Numbered from the stretch's first letter, positions 19,130 through 48,587 are shown. The stretch: 64,000 bases of DNA from Myxococcota bacterium (GCA_036012755.1 DASCPX010000193.1:12365-76364), one strand, 5' to 3'. Numbers and translations are program-made. The notes: generated by a model not told the origin, from the letters alone.

Positions 19130-21571
19130 CTACGGCGTCGTCGAGTACCCGGGGTCCGGATCGCAGGCGTCCGCTTCGGCCGTAGAAGCGTCGCTGCTGC
19201 CCTCTGCGTAGGTGTTGAGCTCGTTGTAGTCCAGCCGGATCCGACCGACCCCGCCGTCGCCGCCGAGGCGAGTGTGGGTGGTCTCTCCGTCGCCGCCCGC
19301 GGCGGACAGCGCGTCGGTGGCCAGGGTCATGGCGTCCGCGACCAGGAAGATCGAGCCCCCGGCCCCGCCGCCGGCGCCGTATGTCCAGGTGCCCTGAGCC
19401 GCGTTGTCGGTGGATCCGCCGTCAGCCAACAGCCCGTCCGCGTCGTCCACCTCGATCTCGAAGGCCGCGATGTAGACCATGCCCGCGCCGTCACCCCCCG
19501 GTCCGGGCGTGCCCCCGCTCGGCGTGGTGGTGCCTCGCCAGACGCCGCCGCCGCCAGAGCCGAAGAACAGGGTCGACAGATCCGCCGAGCCGTAGGTGTC
19601 CCCAGCGTATGGCGCCGTCGCCGAGCCGCCGGTCCAGGAGTCGCCGTCGGTAGCGCCCCCGGCGTACTCGCCGCCCGCACCGGTGATGTGGGCGCCGCCA
19701 CCGCCATAGTTGTTGATCCAGTGGCCGTAGCTCTCGTTGTAGGCGGAGCAGGCGCCGTCACCGTCACCGTCCCCTTCTCCAGCGTAGGACTCGCCCTGGT
19801 AGCTGTCGCAGTTGTACGAGGTCCCGGTCGCGCCAGCCTCGTAGCCGAGCTCGCTGACGGAGACGCTCGAGCCGCTCTCGACGCTGACGGTGCCGGTCGC
19901 GCGCAGGGCCAGGATGCCCCCTGACTCGCCGTCCCACGCGTCCACCGACAGACTCGACGAGCCCGTGATCGTGACGTCCGTGTAGTTCGGCACGCGCTGC
20001 ACCAAGACCGTCTGGTCGGTCAGATCGGCGTTGGATGACTCGCCGTAGGTGCTGGAGACCGCAGAGGTCAGGGTGATGGTCGTGGTGGTCACCGAGTCGA
20101 CCTCGCCGAACTCGTAGGCGCCGACGTTGGTGTAGGAGCTGTCGGAGCCGTGGAGGTTGATCAAGAGCACCTCGTCGCCCGCCGCGAGCCCGCTCAGGGT
20201 GCCGTCCACCGTCACGTCGGAGCCGCTGATGGCGCTCACCGGCCAGCTGACGATGTCGCCGGAGTCGTGCAGGTTCGTGTCGGATGAGACGCTCAGCGCC
20301 CCGTCGCTGCCGGAGCCGGTCCAGTGGGCGTCGTCCACGTCCCCGTCGCAGTCGTTGTCGACCCCGTCGTAGCGCTCGCGCGCGCCCGGGTAGGTGTCCG
20401 CGTCCGTGTCGTCACAGTCCGTGTCGTCCTCGACGAAGCCCCTCGGCTGGTCGCACTCGTCGTCGCTGACCGACGCGTTGCCGTAGCCGTCGCTGTCGGC
20501 GTCCTCGTACCAGGTCGTCACGTCCAGCGCCGAGTCCTCGTCCGTGTCCCCGTCACAGTCGTCGTCGATGCCGTTGCAGTACTCGTCGGCCCCGGGCCAG
20601 ACGTCCGCGTCGGTGTCGTCGCAGTCGTCCGTGTTGTCGACGTAGCCGCTGGGGGCGTCGCAGGCCTCTGCGCTGAAGCTGCCATCGCCGTAGCCGTCGC
20701 TGTCGTAGTCGATGTACCAGGTCTCCCCGTCGGTGAGCCCCGGGTCCTCGTCGTCGATCCAGTCGTTGCAGTCGTCGTCGATGTCGTTGCAGACCTCTGC
20801 CGCGTCCGGGTTCACCGCCGGATCGCCGTCGTCGCAGTCGGTGTCGTCGTCGACGTAGCCGCTGGGTGCGTCGCAGGCCTCGACGCTGTTCTCGGATCCA
20901 AAGCCGTCGCTGTCGCCGTCCTCGTACCAGGTGGAGAAGTCCACGGCGTCCTCGTCCGTGTCACCGTCGCAGTCGTCGTCGACGTCGTTGCAGACCTCTG
21001 TGCCGTCGGGGTTCACCGAGGCGGAGGTGTCGTCGCAGTCCCCGGTCCGCGCGCTGTAGCCCTCGGGCGGGTCACAGGCATCGAGGGTGGCCTCCCCACC
21101 CCAGCCGTCGTTGTCGCTGTCCTCGTACCAGAGCTCGGTGACGTCTTCGTCGACCTCGCCGTCGCAGTCGTTGTCGACCTCGTCGCAGCGCTCGGCGGCC
21201 TCTGGATAGGTGTTCGGGTCGAGGTCGTCGCAGTCGGCGCCGTTGTCGGCGGTCCCGGAAGGCTGCTCGCAGGAGCTCGAAGCGACTGAGGAGTCGCCGA
21301 AGCCGTCTTCGTCGGCGTCTCGGTACCAGGTTCCCGCGTCGGTGGCGTCGTCCTCGTCGATCTCCCCATCGCAGTCGTCGTCGATGTCGTTACAGAGCTC
21401 CTCGGCGTCCGGGAACACCGCCGGGTCCTGGTCGTCGCAGTCTTCGGTCTCGTCGAAGCCGTCTCCGTCGAGGTCGTCCGGGAGCGTCAGACCCGCGCTG
21501 TCGTGCACGACGGCGGTGTCGGCGATGTAGTCCTTGTTGCGGCAGCCAAGGGTTGCGAGGACCAAGAGCAT
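19130..21571 (-). CDS. lipoprotein with six MopE-type Cys-rich putative metal-binding repeats and a Gly-rich beta-helix-like C-terminal domain
   Basis: 813 aa. N-terminus MLLVLATLGC (lipobox). Repeats follow the pattern WY.D.D.DG(F/Y/W)G....C..P.G.....DCDD.D....P.A.E.CN..DDDCDG..DED. The C-terminal half is rich in GGGG/GxGG tracts. Confidence 0.85.
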   Translation of the reverse strand: MLLVLATLGCRNKDYIADTAVVHDSAGLTLPDDLDGDGFDETEDCDDQDPAVFPDAEELCNDIDDDCDGEIDEDDATDAGTWYRDADEDGFGDSSVASSSCEQPSGTADNGADCDDLDPNTYPEAAERCDEVDNDCDGEVDEDVTELWYEDSDNDGWGGEATLDACDPPEGYSARTGDCDDTSASVNPDGTEVCNDVDDDCDGDTDEDAVDFSTWYEDGDSDGFGSENSVEACDAPSGYVDDDTDCDDGDPAVNPDAAEVCNDIDDDCNDWIDDEDPGLTDGETWYIDYDSDGYGDGSFSAEACDAPSGYVDNTDDCDDTDADVWPGADEYCNGIDDDCDGDTDEDSALDVTTWYEDADSDGYGNASVSDDECDQPRGFVEDDTDCDDTDADTYPGARERYDGVDNDCDGDVDDAHWTGSGSDGALSVSSDTNLHDSGDIVSWPVSAISGSDVTVDGTLSGLAAGDEVLLINLHGSDSSYTNVGAYEFGEVDSVTTTTITLTSAVSSTYGESSNADLTDQTVLVQRVPNYTDVTITGSSSLSVDAWDGESGGILALRATGTVSVESGSSVSVSELGYEAGATGTSYNCDSYQGESYAGEGDGDGDGACSAYNESYGHWINNYGGGGAHITGAGGEYAGGATDGDSWTGGSATAPYAGDTYGSADLSTLFFGSGGGGVWRGTTTPSGGTPGPGGDGAGMVYIAAFEIEVDDADGLLADGGSTDNAAQGTWTYGAGGGAGGSIFLVADAMTLATDALSAAGGDGETTHTRLGGDGGVGRIRLDYNELNTYAEGSSDASTAEADACDPDPGYSTTP
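20329..21484 (-). repeat. six tandem coding repeats of about 180-195 nt (MopE-like Cys-rich modules)
   Basis: Repeat units were read from the translation (aa about 30-415). The first unit lacks the WY start. Confidence 0.75.
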
Positions 21572-35116: not shown

Positions 35117-36230
35117 CGACGACCTCCTGTGGCCGGATCATCGCGCCCATCCTGTTGACGCCCACGACGGTCTTGCCCCTGAGCACATCACCGAGGGCCA
35201 TGCGGTACTGACCGCCGAGGTTCTCCTCGACGACCACCACCCGCTCGATGCCCTCGAGGGCTCTGGCCAGGGCAGTCCGCGGCAGGGGGAAGAGGGTCCG
35301 CGCGTTGACCATGGACACCGCGACCCCTCTCGAGCGGGCGATGGCGAGCGCGTCCCGGCAGGCCCGGGCCGACACGCCGTAGGAGATGAGCAGCGTCCGG
35401 GCGCCCGGATCAGGGTCCCAGTCCACCGTGGCCAGCTCGGGCTCCGCGGCGTCGATCTTCCGCTGGAGGTGGCGGAGCACCGAGAGGGTCTCAGGGTCGT
35501 CCTTGCGCAAGCGCCCGGCCTTGTCGTGAGCGGATCCCGTGACCGTCACCGCTGGCGAGGAGCCCACCGGGACGAAGGCGGGCACGTCCTCTTCCCGCAA
35601 GAAGGCGTAGGTGTCGAAGGGGCCGTCTCCGCTCCAACGCGGGCGGTCGAAGTCCGGAACCGACGGAAGCCCGGCCACGTCCACCACCTCCTGCGTGCTC
35701 GAGACCTCCTTGTCGCTGAGCACGACCACGGGGGTCCGGAGGCGCTCGGACCACTCGAAGGCCCTCAGCGTGTCTTCGTAGCACTCCTGCGCGCTGGAGG
35801 GCGCGAAGATGGGGAAGGTGTAGCCACCGCTGGTAGCCATCGACACCAGCCCGATGTCTCCCTGGGCGCCCAGGGTCGCCGCCCCGGTGCAGGGGCCGAG
35901 CCGCTGGACGACGGCGACGACGAGGGGTGTCTCGGTCATCACCGCGTAGCCCACGGACTCGATCATCAGGCACCAGCCCGGACCCGAGGTCGCGGTCATC
36001 GCGCGTGCGCCGGCTATGGAGGCGCCGATGCAGTAGGCGATGGCGGAGATCTCGTCCGGGGCGGACATGCCCACTCCGCCAAGCGCAGGCAGGGCGCGGG
36101 TCATCTCCGCGAAGATCTCCGAAGCGGGCGTGATCGGGTAGCCCGCGAAGAAGCGGCAGCCGGCATCGACGGCGGCACGAGCGGACATCGAGTTGCCGGT
36201 CGTGAAGAGGCGGGCGGGGGTCATCGTCAT
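35106..36230 (-). CDS. 2-oxoacid:ferredoxin oxidoreductase alpha subunit
   Basis: Start ATG at 36230 inside track ORF 35106..36551 (MTMTPARLFTTGNSMSARAAVDAGCRFFAGYPITPASEI). Further block: TATSGPGWCLMIE. There is an 11-nt overlap with the beta-gamma gene. Confidence 0.8.
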   Translation of the reverse strand: MTMTPARLFTTGNSMSARAAVDAGCRFFAGYPITPASEIFAEMTRALPALGGVGMSAPDEISAIAYCIGASIAGARAMTATSGPGWCLMIESVGYAVMTETPLVVAVVQRLGPCTGAATLGAQGDIGLVSMATSGGYTFPIFAPSSAQECYEDTLRAFEWSERLRTPVVVLSDKEVSSTQEVVDVAGLPSVPDFDRPRWSGDGPFDTYAFLREEDVPAFVPVGSSPAVTVTGSAHDKAGRLRKDDPETLSVLRHLQRKIDAAEPELATVDWDPDPGARTLLISYGVSARACRDALAIARSRGVAVSMVNARTLFPLPRTALARALEGIERVVVVEENLGGQYRMALGDVLRGKTVVGVNRMGAMIRPQEVVDAL

Positions 36231-36344
36231 CGCCGGCCGACGTATTCCGTTCCGAGCCGGACGGGGACCACGCCCCTGCCAGATTCTGACCTCCCCCCCT
36301 CCGATTCCCACCTCACGCTCCACCCGTCTCGATAAGAAGCCTGC

Positions 36345-37703
36345 ATGGTCATCGTCCGCTGGAACCGAGGCACCCTGGTCTTGGAGGGAGTCTCCCCCCA
36401 AGCCATGCCCCCGGGCTTCGTGTGGGACGACCGCGTGCGCAGGCCACGGGGAGAGGCCCGGCTCTACCACGACACGGTCCTGGCCCTTCACCGCGCCGGC
36501 ACGCCCTACCGCGACGAGGCCCGGGGCTGGGCGACCCTGGAGCGCCCACACACCACCCCCAAGACGGCGAGGAGCTACCAGTCAGAAGCCTTCGAGGCGT
36601 GGCGGGAGGCCGGGCGTCGCGGCGTCGTGTCCCTCCCCACCGGCTCCGGGAAGAGCTTCGTCGCGGAGCTCTGCATCGCGGACACGAAGCGACCGACCCT
36701 CGTGGTGGCGCCGACCATCGACCTCTGCACCCAGTGGCAGCGGAACCTCGCCGCCGCCTTCGGGGACCCGATCGGCGGCCTCGGCGGCGGCCAGCACGCA
36801 CTCGAGGACATCACCGTGTCGACCTACGACTCGGCCTACATCCACATGGAGCGCTACGGCGACCGCTTCGGCCTGGTGGTCTTCGACGAGGTCCACCACC
36901 TCCCGGCACAGGCATACGCCCAGATCGCAGAGATGATGCTGGCGCCCTACCGCCTGGGGCTCAGCGCCACCGTCGAGCGTCAGGACGGGGCCCACCTCGA
37001 CCTCGCGTCGCTGGTCGGCCCCACGATCTACGAGAAGGGCATCAAGGAGCTCTCAGGCCACGTGCTCGCGGACTACCGGGTACAGCGCGTGACGGTCGAG
37101 ATGGGACCGGACCGGCAGGCGGAGTACGACGAGAACATGGCTCGCTATCGGGGCTTCATCGCCTCGCGCGGGATTCGACTAGGGGGGCGCAACGGCTGGC
37201 AGCGATTCCTCATGGAGGCAGCCCGCAGCAAGCAGGGCCGGGCCGCCCTGCGCTCCCACCGGGAGACCCGGCGGCTCATGCACGCCACCCCCGCCAAGCT
37301 CGACGCCCTCGATCAGATCCTCGAGCAGCACCGGGGACAGCGGGTCATCGTCTTCACCAACGACAACGCCACGGTCTACCGCATCAGCCGGGACTTCCTC
37401 GTCCCCTGCATCACCCACCGCACGGGCACCGACGAGCGGCGGCGGGTGCTGGAGGCCTTCTCCGCCGGCGAGTACACGGTCATAGCGACGAGCCGGGTCC
37501 TCAACGAAGGCGTCGACATCCCCGAAGCCCAGGTTGGCGTGGTGCTCTCGGGCAGCGCCACCGTGCGGGAACACGTCCAGAGACTCGGCCGCATCCTCCG
37601 GCCCTTCGAGGGCAAGGAGGCAGTGCTCTACGAACTGGTCACAGAGGGCACCACAGAGGTCCGTCACTCCGAGCGCAGGAACGAGCACGATGCTTACCGG
37701 TGA
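36345..37703 (+). CDS. xpb: XPB/Ssl2 (ERCC3/Rad25)-type SF2 DNA helicase, short archaeal-like form
   Basis: 452 aa. The N-terminal DRD-like region is MVIVRWNRGTLVLEG...FVWDDRVRRPRGEARLYHDTVLAL. Helicase motifs: Walker A SLPTGSGKSF, VVFDEVHHL, GLSATVERQDG, VIVFTNDN, ATSRVLNEGVDIPEA, VQRLGRILR. Confidence 0.85.
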   Translation: MVIVRWNRGTLVLEGVSPQAMPPGFVWDDRVRRPRGEARLYHDTVLALHRAGTPYRDEARGWATLERPHTTPKTARSYQSEAFEAWREAGRRGVVSLPTGSGKSFVAELCIADTKRPTLVVAPTIDLCTQWQRNLAAAFGDPIGGLGGGQHALEDITVSTYDSAYIHMERYGDRFGLVVFDEVHHLPAQAYAQIAEMMLAPYRLGLSATVERQDGAHLDLASLVGPTIYEKGIKELSGHVLADYRVQRVTVEMGPDRQAEYDENMARYRGFIASRGIRLGGRNGWQRFLMEAARSKQGRAALRSHRETRRLMHATPAKLDALDQILEQHRGQRVIVFTNDNATVYRISRDFLVPCITHRTGTDERRRVLEAFSAGEYTVIATSRVLNEGVDIPEAQVGVVLSGSATVREHVQRLGRILRPFEGKEAVLYELVTEGTTEVRHSERRNEHDAYR

Positions 37704-38877
37704 CCTGGTGCGTGTCCGGAGCACGCGCGAAGGGGTGCGGCCCAGCTTCGTGAAGGTCGAACAACGCACGCTGGAGCGAGCGGAAGAAGTCCTCCAGCTC
37801 TTCCACGAGGGCGTCGAGGAGTCCCGGACCCGCCAGGAGCTCACCGACGGCGTGCTGGAGCTCGTCGGAGACGGCACCGACCACAAGATCTGGCGAGGCA
37901 TGGCCAAGCTGCTCTCCGACAAGGCCGAGTTCGTGACGGAGGCCCCGCTCCCCCCCGTCGAGCTCCGCGCCAGGCTCTTCGGCGAGGTCGGCGCTGGTCC
38001 TTCGAGGGCCAGGGCGATCGAGACCTACGCGCGAGTCGCCGAGGAGCTGGGCTCCACCCCGGCGGTGCTCCGCCGACTGCTCTTCGCGGACCGGAAGGAG
38101 GAGCAGCAGATCCAGGCGCTGCCGGTCGACGACGCGAGCTGGCTCGTGCATCGCTACAACGTCGCCCTCGTCCAGAGCGTCCTGCTCAAGGCCACCAGCC
38201 TCACCGTGACGCTGAAGGCGCCGAAGAGCGAGCGCCTGCGCCAGCTATTCAGAGGCATCGCCTTCCACCGGCTGATGTACAGGGTCCAGCCGATCGCAGA
38301 CGGCGTGCGGTTGGAGCTCGACGGCCCCGCCAGCCTGCTCCGCCTCAACACTCGCTACGGCATGGCCCTGGCGAACTGGTTCCCCGCCCTCCTGCTGCAG
38401 GACGGGGCCTGGGAGCTGGAGGCGGAGGTGCGCTGGACGAGGCGGCGGCTGCGCAAGAAGCTGGTGCTCAGCTCGGAGCAGGGCCTGGTGAGCCACTACC
38501 AGGACAAGGGGGCGTGGCGCTCCCGGACCGAGGAGTGGTTCCTGCAGCGCTTCCAGAGTCTCGACTCCGGCTGGACCATCGAGGACGGCACCGTGCTCGA
38601 TCTCGGTGGCCAGGGTGTGGTCTGCCCCAGCTTCACCTTCCGCAAGGGGCGCCGGCGAGCCCACCTGGAGATCGTCGGCTTCTGGCGCAAGGCCTGGCTG
38701 CAGCGCCGCCTCGAGCTGCTGGAGCGACACGGCCCGGGCACGCTCGTCCTGGCGGTGAGCACCCGGCTGGAGGGCGCCAAGCAGGGCCTCGGCCGGTTCG
38801 CGGGTCAGGTGGTGTCGTTCAAGGAGGTCGTCCCGGCCAAGGACGTGCTCGCCCTCATCGAGGAGATCGCCGTGTGA
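37690..38877 (+). CDS. bax1: Bax1/DUF790-like nuclease (XPB partner)
   Basis: Start ATG at 37690 inside track ORF 37534..38877, overlapping the XPB 3' end by 14 nt. The N-terminus MLTGDLVRVRSTREGVRPSFVKVEQRTLERAEEVLQLF...DHKIWRGMAKLL and the length (395 aa) match my memory of DUF790/Bax1. Confidence 0.7.
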   Translation: MLTGDLVRVRSTREGVRPSFVKVEQRTLERAEEVLQLFHEGVEESRTRQELTDGVLELVGDGTDHKIWRGMAKLLSDKAEFVTEAPLPPVELRARLFGEVGAGPSRARAIETYARVAEELGSTPAVLRRLLFADRKEEQQIQALPVDDASWLVHRYNVALVQSVLLKATSLTVTLKAPKSERLRQLFRGIAFHRLMYRVQPIADGVRLELDGPASLLRLNTRYGMALANWFPALLLQDGAWELEAEVRWTRRRLRKKLVLSSEQGLVSHYQDKGAWRSRTEEWFLQRFQSLDSGWTIEDGTVLDLGGQGVVCPSFTFRKGRRRAHLEIVGFWRKAWLQRRLELLERHGPGTLVLAVSTRLEGAKQGLGRFAGQVVSFKEVVPAKDVLALIEEIAV

Positions 38878-40054
38878 CCAGGACCGCCAGCAGAGCCAGC
38901 AGCCAGCCCGCCGAGATGGGGGTGGTGACACACCCGCCGACGTGCTCTTCGTCGACGTCGGAGAGGTCCTTCGGCTCACGGTCGCCGTCGTCGTCCCCGT
39001 CATCGCCGTCGTCGCCCGGATCCTCGAGACCCGTGTCGTCGACCGGGTCTTCGATCTCGGAGTCGGTGTCCTCTGGGGTCGAGTCGTCCGGGATCTCGTA
39101 GGTCACGCGGAGCCGGAAGGCGTCCACCCAGGCATCGGAGTCCCTGGCGCCGCCGGGGTGGTCGTAGAGCTTCACGGTGGCCTCGACCGCCGAGACATCT
39201 GCCCAGCCCCAGGCGCGCTCGTCGCTCAGATCCAGCGTCGTCCAGCCCGTGGAGGTGCTGCCGAAGACCGTGCTCGCCGATCCGCCGCCGTCGAGCGACA
39301 GGTCCAGCTCGTATGTCCCCGAGTCGTACTGGGTCCTGCTGCGCACACCCAGCTCGACGCCGGTGATCGTGCCCTCGCTGCAGCCGCCGAAGCCCCATGC
39401 CTTGAGGTACTCGCCGGAGTCGACGTTCTCTGAGTGGGCCTCCAGATCATCGGCCTCGCCGGTGGCGTAGGAGGCGCTCGACCAGCCGCTGCCATCGGCC
39501 ACCGTCGCCCACAAGTCGATGCTGTGAGCGCCGACGTCCGTCGAGCAGTCCAGCTCCGGGACCTCGACATCCCCAGGCTCGAGCAGCACGAAGCGGACCG
39601 CGTTGGCCTCGTCGGACTGGTCGTCATCGTCGCCGTCGAGGGTGACGTAGCAGGAGCCGAAGCCCGCGTCGCACTGGACCTCGCCCAGCTCGAGCCAGTC
39701 AGAGGCGCCCTCTCCACGCTGGTCGACGACCACGTGACCCACGCTGCCATCAGCGCTGTAGAGGTAGTGGTCCGCGTCGTAGGTCCGGTTCTCGGTCCGA
39801 CGGAACCACGTGTCGATGCGGTAGGTGCCCGCGGTGGAGATGCTCGGCGTCCAGGTCGCGGTGCCGCGGCGGTCGCTGCCGCCGACGGTGTGCGAGGTGT
39901 AGTGGTAGCTCGAGTCGCCGCCGTCGTAGCCGTAGCCGTTGCTGCTCCAAGTGGTCCAGTCATCGCCGGTCGTGGTGAACCCAGGGGCGCCGTCTTCGTC
40001 GTCGATGACGACGGTCTCCGCGTTCGCGAACGCAAGACACAGGGGCAGGAGCAC
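38855..40054 (-). CDS. secreted beta-sandwich protein with MYXO-CTERM-like sorting tag
   Basis: The C-terminus HVGGCVTTPISAGWLLALLAVLVTRRSPR has the layout invariant Cys + hydrophobic helix + basic tail. An acidic linker precedes it (DDTGLEDPGDDGDDGDDDGD). The N-terminal domain (ATWTPSISTAGTYRIDTWFRRTENRTYDADHYLYSADG) resembles golvesin-C-terminal-like domains. The start is uncertain: GTG 40054 gives MLLPLCLAFANA, and the track ATG at 40195 is the alternative. Confidence 0.65.
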   Translation of the reverse strand: MLLPLCLAFANAETVVIDDEDGAPGFTTTGDDWTTWSSNGYGYDGGDSSYHYTSHTVGGSDRRGTATWTPSISTAGTYRIDTWFRRTENRTYDADHYLYSADGSVGHVVVDQRGEGASDWLELGEVQCDAGFGSCYVTLDGDDDDQSDEANAVRFVLLEPGDVEVPELDCSTDVGAHSIDLWATVADGSGWSSASYATGEADDLEAHSENVDSGEYLKAWGFGGCSEGTITGVELGVRSRTQYDSGTYELDLSLDGGGSASTVFGSTSTGWTTLDLSDERAWGWADVSAVEATVKLYDHPGGARDSDAWVDAFRLRVTYEIPDDSTPEDTDSEIEDPVDDTGLEDPGDDGDDGDDDGDREPKDLSDVDEEHVGGCVTTPISAGWLLALLAVLVTRRSPR

Positions 40055-40107: not shown

Positions 40108-41238
40108 TTGCCGATTCCGTGTCAGGACTTGCCGCTGGCTCCCGGCGGCACCAAATCTGCACGAACGGCGAGCACCTCGCGCGGTCGATCTCCACCGGAG
40201 ATCACCATACATGCACTCATCCTGTCCCTGCTCGCCGTGCTGCTGTGCTGCGGAACCCCGTCCCCGACAGCGCTCAGCGAGCCGAAGGAGCCCGTGAACA
40301 CTGCACAGATCGACGATCGTCTCGTCATCCCCACCGTCATCCAGCACGGCGGCTTCGCCGTCTTCCCCATCGTCGACACGAAGGCCACCAAGCGCCCCAA
40401 GGGCAAGTACCTGACCCTGGACGAGGCCCTCCAGACCGAGATCCTCGAAGTCAAAGAGGTCGACGAGTCCGGCAGCGTGCCGACGCTCCTGGTCCACAAC
40501 AAGGGCAAGCACCCGGTACTCCTCTTCGTAGGTGACGTGGTCACCGGCGGAAAACAGGACCGCGTGATCACAGAAGACCTCGTCCTGGAGCCCACGGAAG
40601 AGCCCGTCAGCGTCGCCGTCAACTGTGTGGAACAGGGTCGCTGGAGCGGCGCCACCGGCATCCATTTCGGCTACGGCGGAAAGGCCGAAGCCGACCTGAT
40701 TCGCGCGCTGGGAGAAAAGAACCAAGGCACCACCTGGTCGAAGGTCGCCGAGCTCAACGCCCAGAAGGCCGTCGCGACCGGGGCGCCGGGACTCGCACCC
40801 GCCAGCGGGACCTACCGGGCCAGCCTCGAGAACGAGGCGGTCGACGAGCAGATCACGGCCGCGCGAAAGGTCATCGACACCGAGCTCGACGAGATCGACG
40901 GAGTGGTCGGCCTGGTGCTCGCTCTCGACGGCGAGGTCGACAGCGCCGAGCTCTACGCCCACCCGAACCTCTTCGACAAGGCGCAGGTCGGCCTGGTCGA
41001 CTCCTACGCCCGAGAGGCCCTGGGGCGCGATCTCTTCGAGAAGCGCACCAATCCCCCCACCGCCACAGAAGCCGCCACCTTCGTACGAGAGGCCCGCGAA
41101 GCCAAGGTCGTCGAGGAAGAGGCCAAGGCCTCATCCGTCTCACGCAGGCTGGACTCGCTGGAGTCAGAGGCCTTCGTGCTCTCTGCCGACGACGGCACGG
41201 TGGTGCGCGAGCGCATGCACAAGAAGAAGAAGAAGTGA
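40108..41238 (+). CDS. DUF6569/ARPP-1-like lipoprotein-type hypothetical protein
   Basis: Hydrophobic segment plus Cys: ALILSLLAVLLCCG. The block FPIV....KYLTLDEALQTEILEVKEVDESGSVPTLLVHNKGKHPVLLFVGDVVTGGKQDRV......VNCVEQGRWSG fits my memory of the DUF6569 pattern. It ends in HKKKKK (AAG x5). The start is uncertain. Confidence 0.6.
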   Translation: MPIPCQDLPLAPGGTKSARTASTSRGRSPPEITIHALILSLLAVLLCCGTPSPTALSEPKEPVNTAQIDDRLVIPTVIQHGGFAVFPIVDTKATKRPKGKYLTLDEALQTEILEVKEVDESGSVPTLLVHNKGKHPVLLFVGDVVTGGKQDRVITEDLVLEPTEEPVSVAVNCVEQGRWSGATGIHFGYGGKAEADLIRALGEKNQGTTWSKVAELNAQKAVATGAPGLAPASGTYRASLENEAVDEQITAARKVIDTELDEIDGVVGLVLALDGEVDSAELYAHPNLFDKAQVGLVDSYAREALGRDLFEKRTNPPTATEAATFVREAREAKVVEEEAKASSVSRRLDSLESEAFVLSADDGTVVRERMHKKKKK

Positions 41239-44385: not shown

Positions 44386-46059
44386 TCAACGAGCGATGGT
44401 GATGCCCAGCTCTTCCAGGCGCTCCCTCAGCGCCTCCATGTCTCCCTCGCGCACCAGGCACTGACCGCGCACGACCTCTCGGGCCAGCAGCGGCCCGGCG
44501 ATGTGGTCCCGCCGGATGGCGTCTGTCACGCTGGCGGGGAGGTGGATCACCAGCGCCGCCTCGGTGCGGGCGGGCTCGACGCCGCTGGCGGCCCGGACCC
44601 GGACCTCGAGCTCCCCGGGCAAGGTGGAGTCGACGTGCAGACGCCGGAGGGTCTCGAGCAAGCCGTTGACGTCATCGACAGGTCGGGGGGCGACGTCGAA
44701 GTACCAGTGGCGGCGATCACGGCCCGCCAACGAGCCCACTCGCGCCAGCGCCGCGCGGACGGTGAGCGCGTCGCGACCAACCGGAACGACGATGCGATCC
44801 CCCTCCATGTGGAAGGCGGCCGGAGGCGGCTCCGTGTAGTCGATGACGCGACCGGCCCCCGGCCCCCGACGGAGCCTCCCCTCCTCGTCCTCCACGACGG
44901 TCACGCCCGAGAACAGGGTGATGCGCTCCGCGGAGCGCGCCCACTCCACGATGGACTGCTGCACCGTGAGCGGGACTCCGGTCCGGCTGTGCTCGGCCAG
45001 GAAGTCCAGGACATCGAGGTTCCCCACCGCCATGTCCGCGGCGACGCCGCCTCGGGTGAGCTTGTGGCGGTGGACCCGGTCTCCATCGACGTATGGGGCG
45101 AGCCGGCAGAGACGCCCGTAGTCGCTGGAGGAGAGCTCTCCGGCGCCGACGATTATGTCCATGTCCGGAGTGAGCAGGAAACCCGTGGGGAGGCGTGGCT
45201 GCTCGCCGGGCTTGCGCACGGAGACGAGCCCCTCCGCGTCTCGAGAGCCCTCCAGCACGCCGATGCGATGGAAGACCTCTGCCGCGAGACGCAGGGCGGC
45301 GTCCGGGTTGCCGGGCAAGGCGCCCGCGGCCCTGTCGCCCAGCAGGGCGAGCACGTCATCGATCCTGGCCCAGTGCTCTCCGACGAGGCGCAACAGCAGG
45401 CGACCAGCGGCGTGCTCGTCGCTGTCGAGGACCACCGCAGGATCGACCAGCCTGCGAGGCCGGGACTCGGGGAAGCCATAGAGGCGACCCGCGGCTGGAC
45501 GGGCCATGCCGCAGGCCCGGGCCAGGCGAAGGGCCAGACGCCAGCGCGCCGGATCCCCCAGGGAGCCGAGCAGCCGGTCGATCTGGTCCTTTCGCGGAGA
45601 GCCATCACGGGTCAGCGACGGAGGCCTGGCCTCCAGGGCCGCAGCGGCCACGACCCTGTCGAAGCGAGCATCCCCCGGCGGGAAGCTCGGGGCACCGGGG
45701 GCGGCCGGAAGGGCACCGGCGAAGGGATGGCGACCACGCAGGTGCGGGCTCAGACGCGAAGCCGCAGCGTAGAACCGCGGGTCGATCGTCGCCCCGCTGG
45801 AGGGACGCGCCCGGGGCAGCACGAAGCCTCCGAGCCAGAGCATCTCGTGGGTCTCGATCCTCCCGGCGAAGCGCGGGTCGATGGGATCCCCGGCGTCCCC
45901 GGCCAACAGCAGGGTGTCGAGGAGGTCCCGGTCGTCCCCGCCGAGTGCCTCCGCGCGTCGCAGGACCGAGGAGGGGTCATCGATCTCGTCGATGCCTACG
46001 GGCATCTCGGCGCGGAAGCTCGCGTCGTAGGCGTCGACCAGCCGCGCGAGCTCGCTCAT
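44386..46059 (-). CDS. TFIIH-p52/Tfb2-like ('helicase-associated', XPB-clutch-type) domain protein
   Basis: The start ATG at 46059 (MSELARLVDAY) forms an ATGA overlap with the upstream lipoprotein stop. The key block is GFLLTPDMDIIVGAGELSSSDYGRLCRLAPYVDGDRVHRHKLTRGGVAADMAVGNLDVLDFLAEHSRTGVPLTVQQSIVEWARSAERI. Confidence 0.55.
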   Translation of the reverse strand: MSELARLVDAYDASFRAEMPVGIDEIDDPSSVLRRAEALGGDDRDLLDTLLLAGDAGDPIDPRFAGRIETHEMLWLGGFVLPRARPSSGATIDPRFYAAASRLSPHLRGRHPFAGALPAAPGAPSFPPGDARFDRVVAAAALEARPPSLTRDGSPRKDQIDRLLGSLGDPARWRLALRLARACGMARPAAGRLYGFPESRPRRLVDPAVVLDSDEHAAGRLLLRLVGEHWARIDDVLALLGDRAAGALPGNPDAALRLAAEVFHRIGVLEGSRDAEGLVSVRKPGEQPRLPTGFLLTPDMDIIVGAGELSSSDYGRLCRLAPYVDGDRVHRHKLTRGGVAADMAVGNLDVLDFLAEHSRTGVPLTVQQSIVEWARSAERITLFSGVTVVEDEEGRLRRGPGAGRVIDYTEPPPAAFHMEGDRIVVPVGRDALTVRAALARVGSLAGRDRRHWYFDVAPRPVDDVNGLLETLRRLHVDSTLPGELEVRVRAASGVEPARTEAALVIHLPASVTDAIRRDHIAGPLLAREVVRGQCLVREGDMEALRERLEELGITIAR

Positions 46060-47693: not shown

Positions 47694-48587
47694 TCAGCTG
47701 AGGGGGAGCGCGAGGCTGTCTATGACCCAGTCCTGGGGACCGAATGTCTTGGAGTTCTGGCGCGCCTGGCCAGAGGCGCGGAAGCGCAGGAAGCGATCAG
47801 CCCAGCGGCGCAGCGACAGCGGGAAGCGCCACTCCCACCGGTCTTTGCGGCGCACCCGCGCCATCATCATCCAGTGGAGCGTGATCGGGTGGTGCTCGAC
47901 CGGGTCGCCGAGACATGGCATGCCCTCGAGATCCGCTGGGACCTTCGAGAAGGCGATTCGGCCGTCGGAGTCGACGCCGATCCAGTCGTTCTCAGGAGGG
48001 TGGCCGAGGGCATCCGCCCAGTCGAGCAGGCCCTGGAGATCCTCGTCGGCACCCTGGCGACGTGCCATCTTCGCGAAGGCGCGGCCGCATGCCTCTGCGT
48101 CGTTGGTGGCGCGATGGGCGCCTTCGAGTCGCACATCGAGCCGGCTGCAGAGGTCCTGGAGCTTGTGGGACCGGGCGTCGGGGAACACCCGCTTGGACAA
48201 CAACAACGTGTCGATCTCGGCGAAGGGATCGGGCCACACGCGCCCGGCCCGCTCGAACTCCATGGACAAGAAAGCGCGGTCGAAGGCGTAGTTGTGGGCG
48301 ACACAGACACCGCCCTGCATGACGCGAGCGATCTCGTCGATCTTCCCGGCGAACAGCGGCGCGTTGGCGACGTCAGCGTCCGTGATTCCCGTGACCTGGG
48401 TCGCCTTGGGCGGGATCGGTCGCTCCGGGTTGAAGAGCGCGTGGTGACGCTGGACGCCGACGACCCGCCCCTCGCGGCCGATGGTCAACTCGACGGCGGC
48501 CCACTCCATGATGCGGTCGTCGTCGAAGGGTCTCAGTCCCGTCGTCTCGGTGTCGTAAGCGACGATGCGCAGCTCCTTCCACTTCAC
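47694..48587 (-). CDS. DEDDh 3'-5' exonuclease (DnaQ/RNase T-like) with about 110-aa C-terminal extension
   Basis: GTG at 48587 forms a GTGA overlap with the upstream stop. Motifs: Exo I IVAYDTETTGL, Exo II CVAHNYAFDRAFL, Exo III GAHRATNDAEA. Confidence 0.8.
   Translation of the reverse strand: MKWKELRIVAYDTETTGLRPFDDDRIMEWAAVELTIGREGRVVGVQRHHALFNPERPIPPKATQVTGITDADVANAPLFAGKIDEIARVMQGGVCVAHNYAFDRAFLSMEFERAGRVWPDPFAEIDTLLLSKRVFPDARSHKLQDLCSRLDVRLEGAHRATNDAEACGRAFAKMARRQGADEDLQGLLDWADALGHPPENDWIGVDSDGRIAFSKVPADLEGMPCLGDPVEHHPITLHWMMMARVRRKDRWEWRFPLSLRRWADRFLRFRASGQARQNSKTFGPQDWVIDSLALPLS

Follow-up and report, generated by a model that had tools for sequence, protein, structure and literature searches.

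The 64,000 nt stretch of DNA analysed here (the window; one strand, about 70% GC, from a Myxococcota bacterium) carries a gene for a short XPB helicase followed on the same strand by a gene for a Bax1/DUF790 family protein. The two genes overlap by 14 nt, ATGCTTACCGGTGA, which run from the Bax1 start codon to the XPB stop codon (Table 1). The list of open reading frames (ORFs) and the translations agree in every detail with the initial annotation of this region, that is with the two overlapping genes, their coordinates, the length of the overlap and the 395-residue second ORF. Both frames have a frame-specific GC3 of about 0.90, the value expected of real genes at 70% GC. Gene calls on four independent public metagenome assemblies that carry the identical pair give both genes with identical boundaries, and the identical Bax1 protein is found on 19 contigs. 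Since the XPB stop and the Bax1 start overlap, translational coupling of the two genes is suggested, and the overlap is of the kind that the initial annotation had taken to point this way. A promoter for the pair is presumed to lie in the intergenic region that separates XPB from a divergent minus-strand gene of the 2-oxoacid:ferredoxin oxidoreductase-like kind, whose start lies at 36230 according to the public assemblies. A sigma-70 consensus scan of this region gave no match, as is to be expected at a GC content of 70%. Downstream, a scan for an intrinsic terminator or hairpin between Bax1 and the convergent Golvesin_C-domain gene found none.

Table 1. Features of the XPB-Bax1 locus and of selected other genes in the window (positions counted from the first nucleotide of the window; residue numbers are those of the encoded proteins)
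Feature	Position	Strand	Basis and remarks
XPB gene	36345..37703	+	ATG start, 452 aa, short DRD-bearing form; mechanical ORF list
Damage-recognition domain (DRD), residues 5-59	36357..36521	+	PF18458 XPB_DRD, E 3.8e-14, 52.7 bits (cut-off 26); aligns with AfXPB N-terminus
Motif I/Walker A PTGSGKS, residues 98-104	36636..36656	+	translation
Motif II DEVH, residues 181-184	36885..36896	+	translation
'RED' position, R212-Q213-D214, within GLSATVERQDG	36978..36986	+	translation
Helicase domain 2/ERCC3_RAD25_C region, residues 305-447	37257..37685	+	PF16203 67.6 bits (cut-off 27), PF00271 63.7 bits
Gene overlap	37690..37703	+	14 nt, Bax1 start codon to XPB stop; XPB TGA at 37701-37703
Bax1/DUF790 gene	37690..38877	+	ATG at 37690 (MLTGDL...), 395 aa
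Asp134 (AfBax1 D133), XPB interface/proposed N-terminal site	38089..38091	+	alignment; 146 of 147 family representatives
Tyr156-Asn157 (AfBax1 Y155/N156), XPB interface	38155..38160	+	alignment; Y in 147 of 148; N in 136, D in 11
Glu281, nuclease motif I (AfBax1 E275)	38530..38532	+	alignment; acidic in 49 of 49 non-Asp sequences
Ser314, codon AGC, at catalytic Asp site (AfBax1 D305, SsoBax1 D301)	38629..38631	+	alignment
Glu327, nuclease motif III (AfBax1 E318), in block HLEIVGFWRK	38668..38670	+	alignment
Intergenic region	36231..36344	.	114 nt, between XPB and the divergent oxidoreductase-like gene
Convergent 3' overlap	38855..38877	.	23 nt, Bax1 3' end and minus-strand Golvesin_C-domain gene (38855..40054)
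PF13625 ('XPB N-terminal/p52-like', Helicase_C_3) protein	44386..46059	-	557 aa; 27.2 bits (cut-off 34.2)
DnaQ-like RNase_T-family exonuclease	47694..48587	-	297 aa; 9 kb from the pair, other strand
ARPP-1 domain protein	40108..41235	+	PF20208, E 9e-53; 1.2 kb downstream of the pair
Protein with six MopE-type Cu-binding repeats	19133..21571	-	813 aa; further upstream

The first protein matches the Pfam models XPB_DRD, ResIII, DEAD, Helicase_C and ERCC3_RAD25_C, in all cases above the curated cut-offs. Its best solved relative (phmmer against the PDB) is the A. fulgidus XPB (AfXPB; 2fwr/6p66), which aligns over residues 4-446 with an E-value of 1.8e-109; S. tokodaii XPBII (7e-101) follows, and the eukaryotic proteins (human, yeast) lie at about 1e-23. 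The AfXPB match and the ERCC3_RAD25_C score place the helicase with XPB rather than with other families of superfamily 2 (SF2). The short form, the DRD and the motifs PTGSGKS, DEVH and GLSATVERQDG, all named in the initial annotation, are borne out by the translation and by the PF18458 match. Residues 206-409 align without gaps to AfXPB, and residues 241-310 are taken to be the ThM region. The NCBIfam equivalog model for long XPB (NF045503) is matched by the helicase core alone, at 205.4 bits against a cut-off of 610, and a Pfam scan of the protein gave no PF13625 match. The failure of the equivalog model assigns the protein to the short, DRD-bearing 'archaeal-type' architecture, which has been contrasted with the long N-terminal domain that XPBs from bacteria and eukaryotes have (PMC3353954). 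The window XPB is 48-50% identical to the XPBs of Deinococcus plasmids, 44% to that of Haloferax and 42% to AfXPB; these pairwise identities, which cover few archaeal sequences and are not backed by a tree, suggest that the myxobacterial XPB is nearer to the Deinococcus than to the archaeal proteins.

Walker A is intact, as PTG[SAT]GK[ST], in every myxobacterial XPB homologue with this segment aligned, and the ATPase motifs are retained in all neighbouring XPBs where they could be aligned. The initial annotation had drawn attention to RQD at the 'RED' position, which does not look like a meaningful deviation. Among 57 myxobacterial XPBs adjoining Bax1 the position reads RPD (32), RTD (7), RAD (6), RED (5), RDD (3), RND (1) or RQD (1); it is RSD in Deinococcus and RPD in Haloferax. 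With only the Arg and the Asp constrained and a residue between them that differs from one member of the clade to the next, RQD probably carries no special message, and it shows no co-variation with the state of the Bax1 Asp discussed below. In three of the XPBs (from loci L025, L033 and L037) the RED region aligns poorly (ATWDHDAER, ATWDADAEREDA), suggesting an insertion or a rearranged motif; the Bax1 partners of these three retain the Asp.

The similarity to DUF790 on which the initial annotation had staked its assignment of the second ORF is present, and it covers the full length of the protein: residues 1-389 align to positions 1-386 of the 387 in PF05626 with an E-value of 5.6e-92 (308.9 bits). 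The NCBIfam models of archaeal Bax1, NF053694 and NF053695, score 148.1 and 144 bits, under their equivalog cut-off of 500. By these scores the window Bax1 is a homologue of the archaeal Bax1 models and not an equivalog. Its relatives in the PDB are the S. tokodaii (StBax1, E 6.5e-35), P. furiosus (8gy8, E 6e-34) and A. fulgidus (AfBax1, E 8e-26) proteins. An AlphaFold2 model made with 17 homologues as input has a pLDDT of 87.5 and a pTM of 0.81. Foldseek aligned this model over its whole length to 6p4w_B, 8gy8_A, 6p66_B and other Bax1 structures (TM 0.66-0.73, E 1e-23 to 1e-25) and returned nothing outside the Bax1 structures better than E 0.01.

In AfBax1 the metal-binding acids of the nuclease domain are E275, D305 and E318, and D305A strongly reduces cutting by this domain (PMC7293015). 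The equivalent change in the S. solfataricus protein, D301A, abolishes cleavage by the XPB-Bax1 complex, as cited in PMC7293015. The window Bax1 retains the glutamates of motifs I and III, and the Glu327 column is Glu or Asp in all 118 closest homologues. Motif II reads P-D-F in St, Af and Pf Bax1, all three of which have been solved, whereas it is P-S-F here; the Ser314 codon is two substitutions away from Asp (GAY). A second nuclease site, in the N-terminal domain, has been proposed in the Bax1 proteins of T. acidophilum and A. fulgidus. The Asp of this proposed D-x-E corresponds to Asp134 in the window protein, and its Glu (AfBax1 E135) to Lys136, at a position that varies across the clade. 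AfBax1 D133, Y155 and N156 have a role in the interface with XPB (PMC7293015), and all three are matched here. With Ser314 in the nuclease domain and Lys136 at the proposed N-terminal site, the window Bax1 looks catalytically compromised by both published criteria, yet still built for XPB binding. The 'Bax1-like nuclease' of the initial annotation is thus upheld as regards homology to Bax1/DUF790, while the word nuclease has become doubtful.

The motif II Asp is a conserved feature of the family at large, being kept in 138 of 145 Bax1 family representatives clustered at 50% identity (95%) and in 66 of the 80 species loci described below. Among the nearest relatives of the window protein (185 distinct sequences), 49 lack it and have instead Ser (12), Thr (11), Cys (9), Asn (8), Ala (5), Gly (2), Glu (1) or Val (1). 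A neighbour-joining tree of the closest sequences requires at least 15 state changes at this column, in several separate groups, and within the window's own group the residue alternates among Ser, Ala, Cys, Gly and Val. Such variation in the replacing residue, together with the number of changes, is what one expects at a position freed from constraint. We looked for a compensating acidic residue in the Asp-less proteins and rejected the candidates: the columns enriched in Asp or Glu (281, 361, 181 and others) track phylogeny and not independent losses. Relaxed constraint on the nuclease domain as a whole in the Asp-less lineages was also rejected, the ratio of domain to overall identity being 1.02 versus 1.06. 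The nuclease domain of the non-Asp lineages is as conserved as the rest of the protein, from which it follows that the protein is still in use; in these lineages XPB still overlaps Bax1. We consider it slightly short of an even chance that Bax1 has turned more than once into a catalytically dead pseudo-nuclease within a sub-clade of Myxococcota while being kept overlapped with XPB.

The distribution of the pair was examined at several levels. In the protein database, 702 of the scored candidates are related to the window Bax1 at E <= 1e-10, and those that carry a name are 'DUF790 family protein' entries from metagenome-assembled genomes (MAGs) of Myxococcota or 'Deltaproteobacteria'. Peptide patterns specific to the clade, run against a single genome for each GTDB species, picked out at least 253 species-level genomes that encode a Bax1 relative, and the best 80 loci, nearly all from Myxococcota MAGs, were examined with up to 6 kb, and at least 1.5 kb, of flanking sequence on each side. 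The records of L011-L015, L056, L064, L068 and L078 bear titles ('uncultured Enterobacterales', 'Klebsiella pneumoniae' or 'Bifidobacterium breve') which look wrong for their gene content. Six of the 80 contigs were too short, leaving 74 informative loci, and in 59 of these XPB adjoins Bax1 or lies within 6 kb of it; the neighbourhood in other genomes that the initial annotation had called for is thus found. XPB is directly upstream of Bax1 in 46 loci, with a 14-nt overlap in 29, an 11-nt overlap in three and small gaps in 14. The order is Bax1 then XPB in five loci, the genes are convergent and adjacent in two, and XPB is elsewhere within 6 kb in six.

Substitutes for XPB were sought downstream of Bax1, and the candidates (an amidohydrolase, a GDSL lipase and a protein of unknown type) were rejected. 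In four myxobacterial genomes Bax1 is immediately preceded, on its own strand, by a conserved ORF of 760-790 residues that matches no Pfam model (L038 3606-5984, L039 3612-5984, L045 3632-6001 and L077 3699-5987), with XPB missing from that position or on the opposite strand. A relation of the 790-residue ORF to p52-like or PF13625 proteins was tried and dropped, since BLASTP and hhalign gave nothing (probability 0.1%).

An exhaustive profile search of 1.84 billion cluster representatives returned 3207 DUF790 clusters at E <= 1e-3, of which 1257 reach E <= 1e-30. Beyond the Myxococcota, tblastn against plasmids gave 42 records, 12 of them from Deinococcus and the rest mostly from haloarchaea; of the 25 plasmid records listed, nearly all are annotated with a 'DUF790 family protein' and a 'DEAD/DEAH box helicase'. 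The Deinococcus helicases have a DRD-like N-terminus, and the annotated overlap of the two genes is 14 nt in seven of the eight records examined and 1 nt in D. peraridilitoris (the junction sequence was read for three). As early as 2005 it was pointed out that DUF790 genes of Archaea and Cyanobacteria lie beside those of COG1061 helicases (PMC1189080), and PMC3353954 states that no bacterial complex of the XPB-Bax1 type had been identified. Our literature searches found no experimental study of a bacterial XPB-Bax1 pair, in keeping with the view taken in the initial annotation that its role lacked prior study. That the pair is a bacterial oddity is contradicted by its spread in Myxococcota, its presence in Deinococcus and the observation of 2005. 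The bacterial pair is real, conserved, widespread and only generically annotated. Bacterial XPB-DUF790 pairs are therefore not new at the level of annotation; what we have not seen described before is the breadth and stable synteny in Myxococcota, the 14-nt overlap shared with Deinococcus and the repeated loss of the nuclease Asp.

The genes scanned around the pair are ordinary ones, for metabolism and transport among other things. Upstream lie an M14 carboxypeptidase, a Ser/Thr kinase, TPR and ANF-receptor proteins, CotH and the two-subunit 2-oxoacid:ferredoxin oxidoreductase; downstream are Golvesin_C, ARPP-1, alpha/beta hydrolase, FG-GAP/ASPIC, the weak PF13625 protein, OmpA, CBS and an RNase_T-family exonuclease, with transporters and lipases further out. 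The ARPP-1 and MopE-repeat proteins have no evident link to XPB-Bax1. When the neighbours of the 80 loci were clustered, a recurring block emerged: one flank has AhpC, TetR, PNP_UDP, RNase_T, OmpA, a 170-residue unknown protein (u181) and the PF13625 protein, the opposite flank ABC and M14. Because the block is common to genomes whose Bax1 is merely 41-69% identical to that of the window, it represents conserved chromosomal synteny and not a variable island.

Two members of this neighbourhood deserve attention. The initial annotation had pointed to a p52-like candidate 5.5 kb downstream; the gene exists, but its PF13625 match is weak. The protein has no sequence relative in the PDB, and with a Pfam score below threshold we rejected it as a relative of p52 or of the XPB N-terminal domain that could be recognised by sequence. 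A block of RNase_T, CBS, OmpA, u181 and PF13625 protein stands beside Bax1 in 10 of the 80 myxobacterial loci, and in three of them (L010, L012 and L014) the PF13625 gene abuts Bax1 directly and convergently. The second is the DnaQ-like exonuclease. In L052, L062 and L082 Bax1 follows immediately after an RNase_T gene of the same orientation, with gaps of 3-9 nt or a short overlap, forming an apparent RNase_T-Bax1-XPB operon. The same RNase_T-Bax1 junction occurs without XPB in L069 and L070, while L050 has the order Bax1-XPB, with no RNase_T found among the gene calls there. Other genes were observed beside the Deinococcus cassettes (L085, L093; L086; L089): a DUF3006 plus excalibur-domain gene pair precedes the cassette twice, a spore-photoproduct-lyase family gene lies directly upstream of it in D. 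gobiensis, and topA and split NucS genes come after it in D. peraridilitoris. The exonuclease, in one sub-lineage, and the lyase gene of D. gobiensis hint at a DNA-metabolism context.

The reading we favour, to which we give a probability of about 50%, is that the pair forms a complex which opens DNA and in which the site of the nuclease domain is dead or crippled, with a probable accessory role in DNA repair or in the rescue of stalled transactions and not in phage defence. The locus would represent the archaeal two-gene module in a myxobacterial form that is carried on the chromosome and maintained by vertical descent. One transcript with overlapping stop and start codons would yield both proteins, most likely as a 1:1 heterodimer by analogy with archaea. 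XPB would act as an ATP-driven translocase on double-stranded DNA, opening or extending bubbles and forks. The N-terminal domain of Bax1 is predicted to dock on XPB, with Bax1 holding the other arm of the junction while XPB, if it behaves like its archaeal relatives, encircles the junction between duplex and single strand and translocates. The archaeal complex is a heterodimer in which Bax1 occupies the other arm, in a position likened to that of XPA, and modulates the ATPase (PMC7293015; PMC7672443, as relayed in PMC13024598). Since the motif II Asp is Ser in the window Bax1, incision through the nuclease domain would be lost or very weak. The main task of Bax1 would then be that of a cofactor which binds the junction and modulates the ATPase, comparable to its XPA-like position in the archaeal ternary complex, and any cut would be left to another nuclease.

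Several observations weigh against this proposal. No XPB was found in the examined flanks of 15 of the 74 informative loci (a few of which have less sequence on one side), so Bax1 might also act without a linked XPB. Glu281, Glu327 and the whole HLEIVGFWRK block of motif III are strictly conserved, and residual or altered catalysis is for this reason possible. The N-terminal site could still cut, its Asp134 being invariant or nearly so, though its Glu is replaced by Lys136. Finally, archaeal XPB deletions (S. islandicus, T. kodakarensis) are only slightly sensitive to ultraviolet light, mitomycin C or methyl methanesulfonate (PMC7776575). The conserved acids and Asp134 are also grounds for a fully active machine of the archaeal kind, in which XPB opens the bubble at a lesion and Bax1 incises the junction, Ser314 being tolerated or another carboxylate supplied. 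The full-length homology, the fold match to the subunits of the archaeal complex and a nuclease domain that is not decaying in the non-Asp lineages all fit such a machine. We nevertheless regard it as unlikely, if a serious contender: the corresponding Asp-to-Ala change kills or cripples the nuclease-domain activity of two archaeal Bax1 proteins (PMC7293015), no lineage-independent compensating acid was found, and a new catalytic role for the replacing residue is made less likely by its variation (S, A, C, N, T, G, V). At the N-terminal D-x-E, moreover, Lys stands in place of the Glu.

Eukaryotic XPB is primarily a promoter-opening translocase, and the pair may instead be a DNA-opening factor for transcription or replication stress that, with the PF13625 protein and the DnaQ-like exonuclease, remodels stalled RNA polymerase or forks. 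The recurrence of the RNase_T-OmpA-u181-PF13625 block beside Bax1, the tight RNase_T-Bax1-XPB order of one sub-lineage and the weak repair phenotypes of the archaeal mutants are consistent with this. We think it quite improbable, however, with the PF13625 match below threshold and its gene on the opposite strand, separated from Bax1 in the window by four to five unrelated genes; the association is inseparable from plain synteny among related genomes, and the window XPB has a DRD and not the N-terminal domain bound by p52 in TFIIH. A very slim chance is left for an anti-phage or anti-plasmid defence system or selfish cassette, with the XPB-like motor loading on foreign DNA and Bax1 as the effector. 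Its appeal lies in the PADLOC matches of the XPB helicase core to PbeA (E 4.9e-52), mREase_IV and similar models, in a further match to the Dnd restriction helicase TIGR04095, and in the Deinococcus and haloarchaeal cassettes, which are carried by megaplasmids and have changing neighbours, among them transposases, HNH, TnpB and type I restriction-modification fragments; Feder and Bujnicki left a 'selfish character' open (PMC1189080). The PbeA and Dnd matches, however, are to the generic SF2 core and lie far below the archaeal XPB score, while Bax1 matches no PADLOC model and has no relative in 50,697 phage records. The synteny of the window and of the myxobacterial loci is that of housekeeping genes, and no integrase, transposase, restriction-modification or other defence gene was seen among the window genes scanned, nor any defence, integrase or transposase gene among those scanned in the myxobacterial loci. 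An effector that repeatedly loses its catalytic Asp also fits nuclease-based immunity poorly, and no link to defence was found in the literature. The defence option of the initial annotation thus finds no support in the window or in the myxobacterial loci.

If Bax1 is a pseudo-nuclease in these lineages, the conserved core function of the module would be junction binding and control of the XPB motor and not incision, and the Asp-less proteins would be natural separation-of-function alleles with which to settle the purpose of XPB-Bax1. Repeated loss of the Asp with retention of the XPB-contact residues thus offers a handle on whether the module is an incision machine or an XPB cofactor. Should the Ser, Ala and Cys variants prove nuclease-dead yet functional, models of archaeal nucleotide excision repair with Bax1 as an XPG-like nuclease would need qualification; should they be active, they would represent an unusual solution for a PD-(D/E)xK active site. 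XPB-Bax1 has been treated as archaeal in the literature, and a module that is common and stably inherited in Myxococcota, and found also in Deinococcus, gives it a wider phylogenetic footing. The finding would not overturn anything.

The closest known system is the archaeal XPB-Bax1 complex (A. fulgidus 6P66; S. tokodaii 6P4F/6P4O/6P4W; P. furiosus Bax1 8GY8), which is made of the same two families at full length. The window pair resembles it in the DRD, HD1, ThM region and HD2 of XPB (42% identity with AfXPB), in the multi-domain fold of Bax1 (TM 0.66-0.73), in the adjacency of XPB and then Bax1, and in the conserved interface residues and nuclease motifs I and III. It differs in its bacterial host, in the lack of a C-terminal extension on Bax1 (395 residues versus 468-501 for the crystallised Af and St constructs), in having Ser314 for the motif II Asp, Lys136 for the D-x-E Glu and RQD for RED, and in a Bax1 score under the NCBIfam equivalog cut-off (148 vs 500). 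The megaplasmid cassettes of Deinococcus and haloarchaea (for example D. gobiensis P1 and H. volcanii pHV4) share the arrangement of a short DRD-type XPB followed by DUF790, and those of Deinococcus also share the 14-nt start/stop overlap in seven of the eight records examined and supply the closest XPB relatives outside Myxococcota (48-50% identity). These plasmid-borne cassettes, in contrast, keep the PD Asp, have a Bax1 merely 32-35% identical to that of the window and lie in variable, transposase-rich surroundings instead of conserved chromosomal synteny.

The actinobacterial long XPB (M. tuberculosis Rv0861c type; NF045503) has the SF2 XPB helicase core in common with the window protein, in which a short DRD replaces the long N-terminal domain (205 bits against the cut-off of 610); no Bax1 partner has been reported for mycobacterial XPB (PMC3353954). 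Eukaryotic TFIIH, with XPB, p52 and XPG, differs further: TFIIH subunits are absent here, the partner is Bax1 rather than p52/p8, and XPB has another kind of N-terminal domain. It shares the XPB motor with thumb and HD2 (E about 1e-23 for human and yeast), and is alike in concept in that a non-catalytic partner regulates the XPB ATPase and incision is delegated to another enzyme, XPG.

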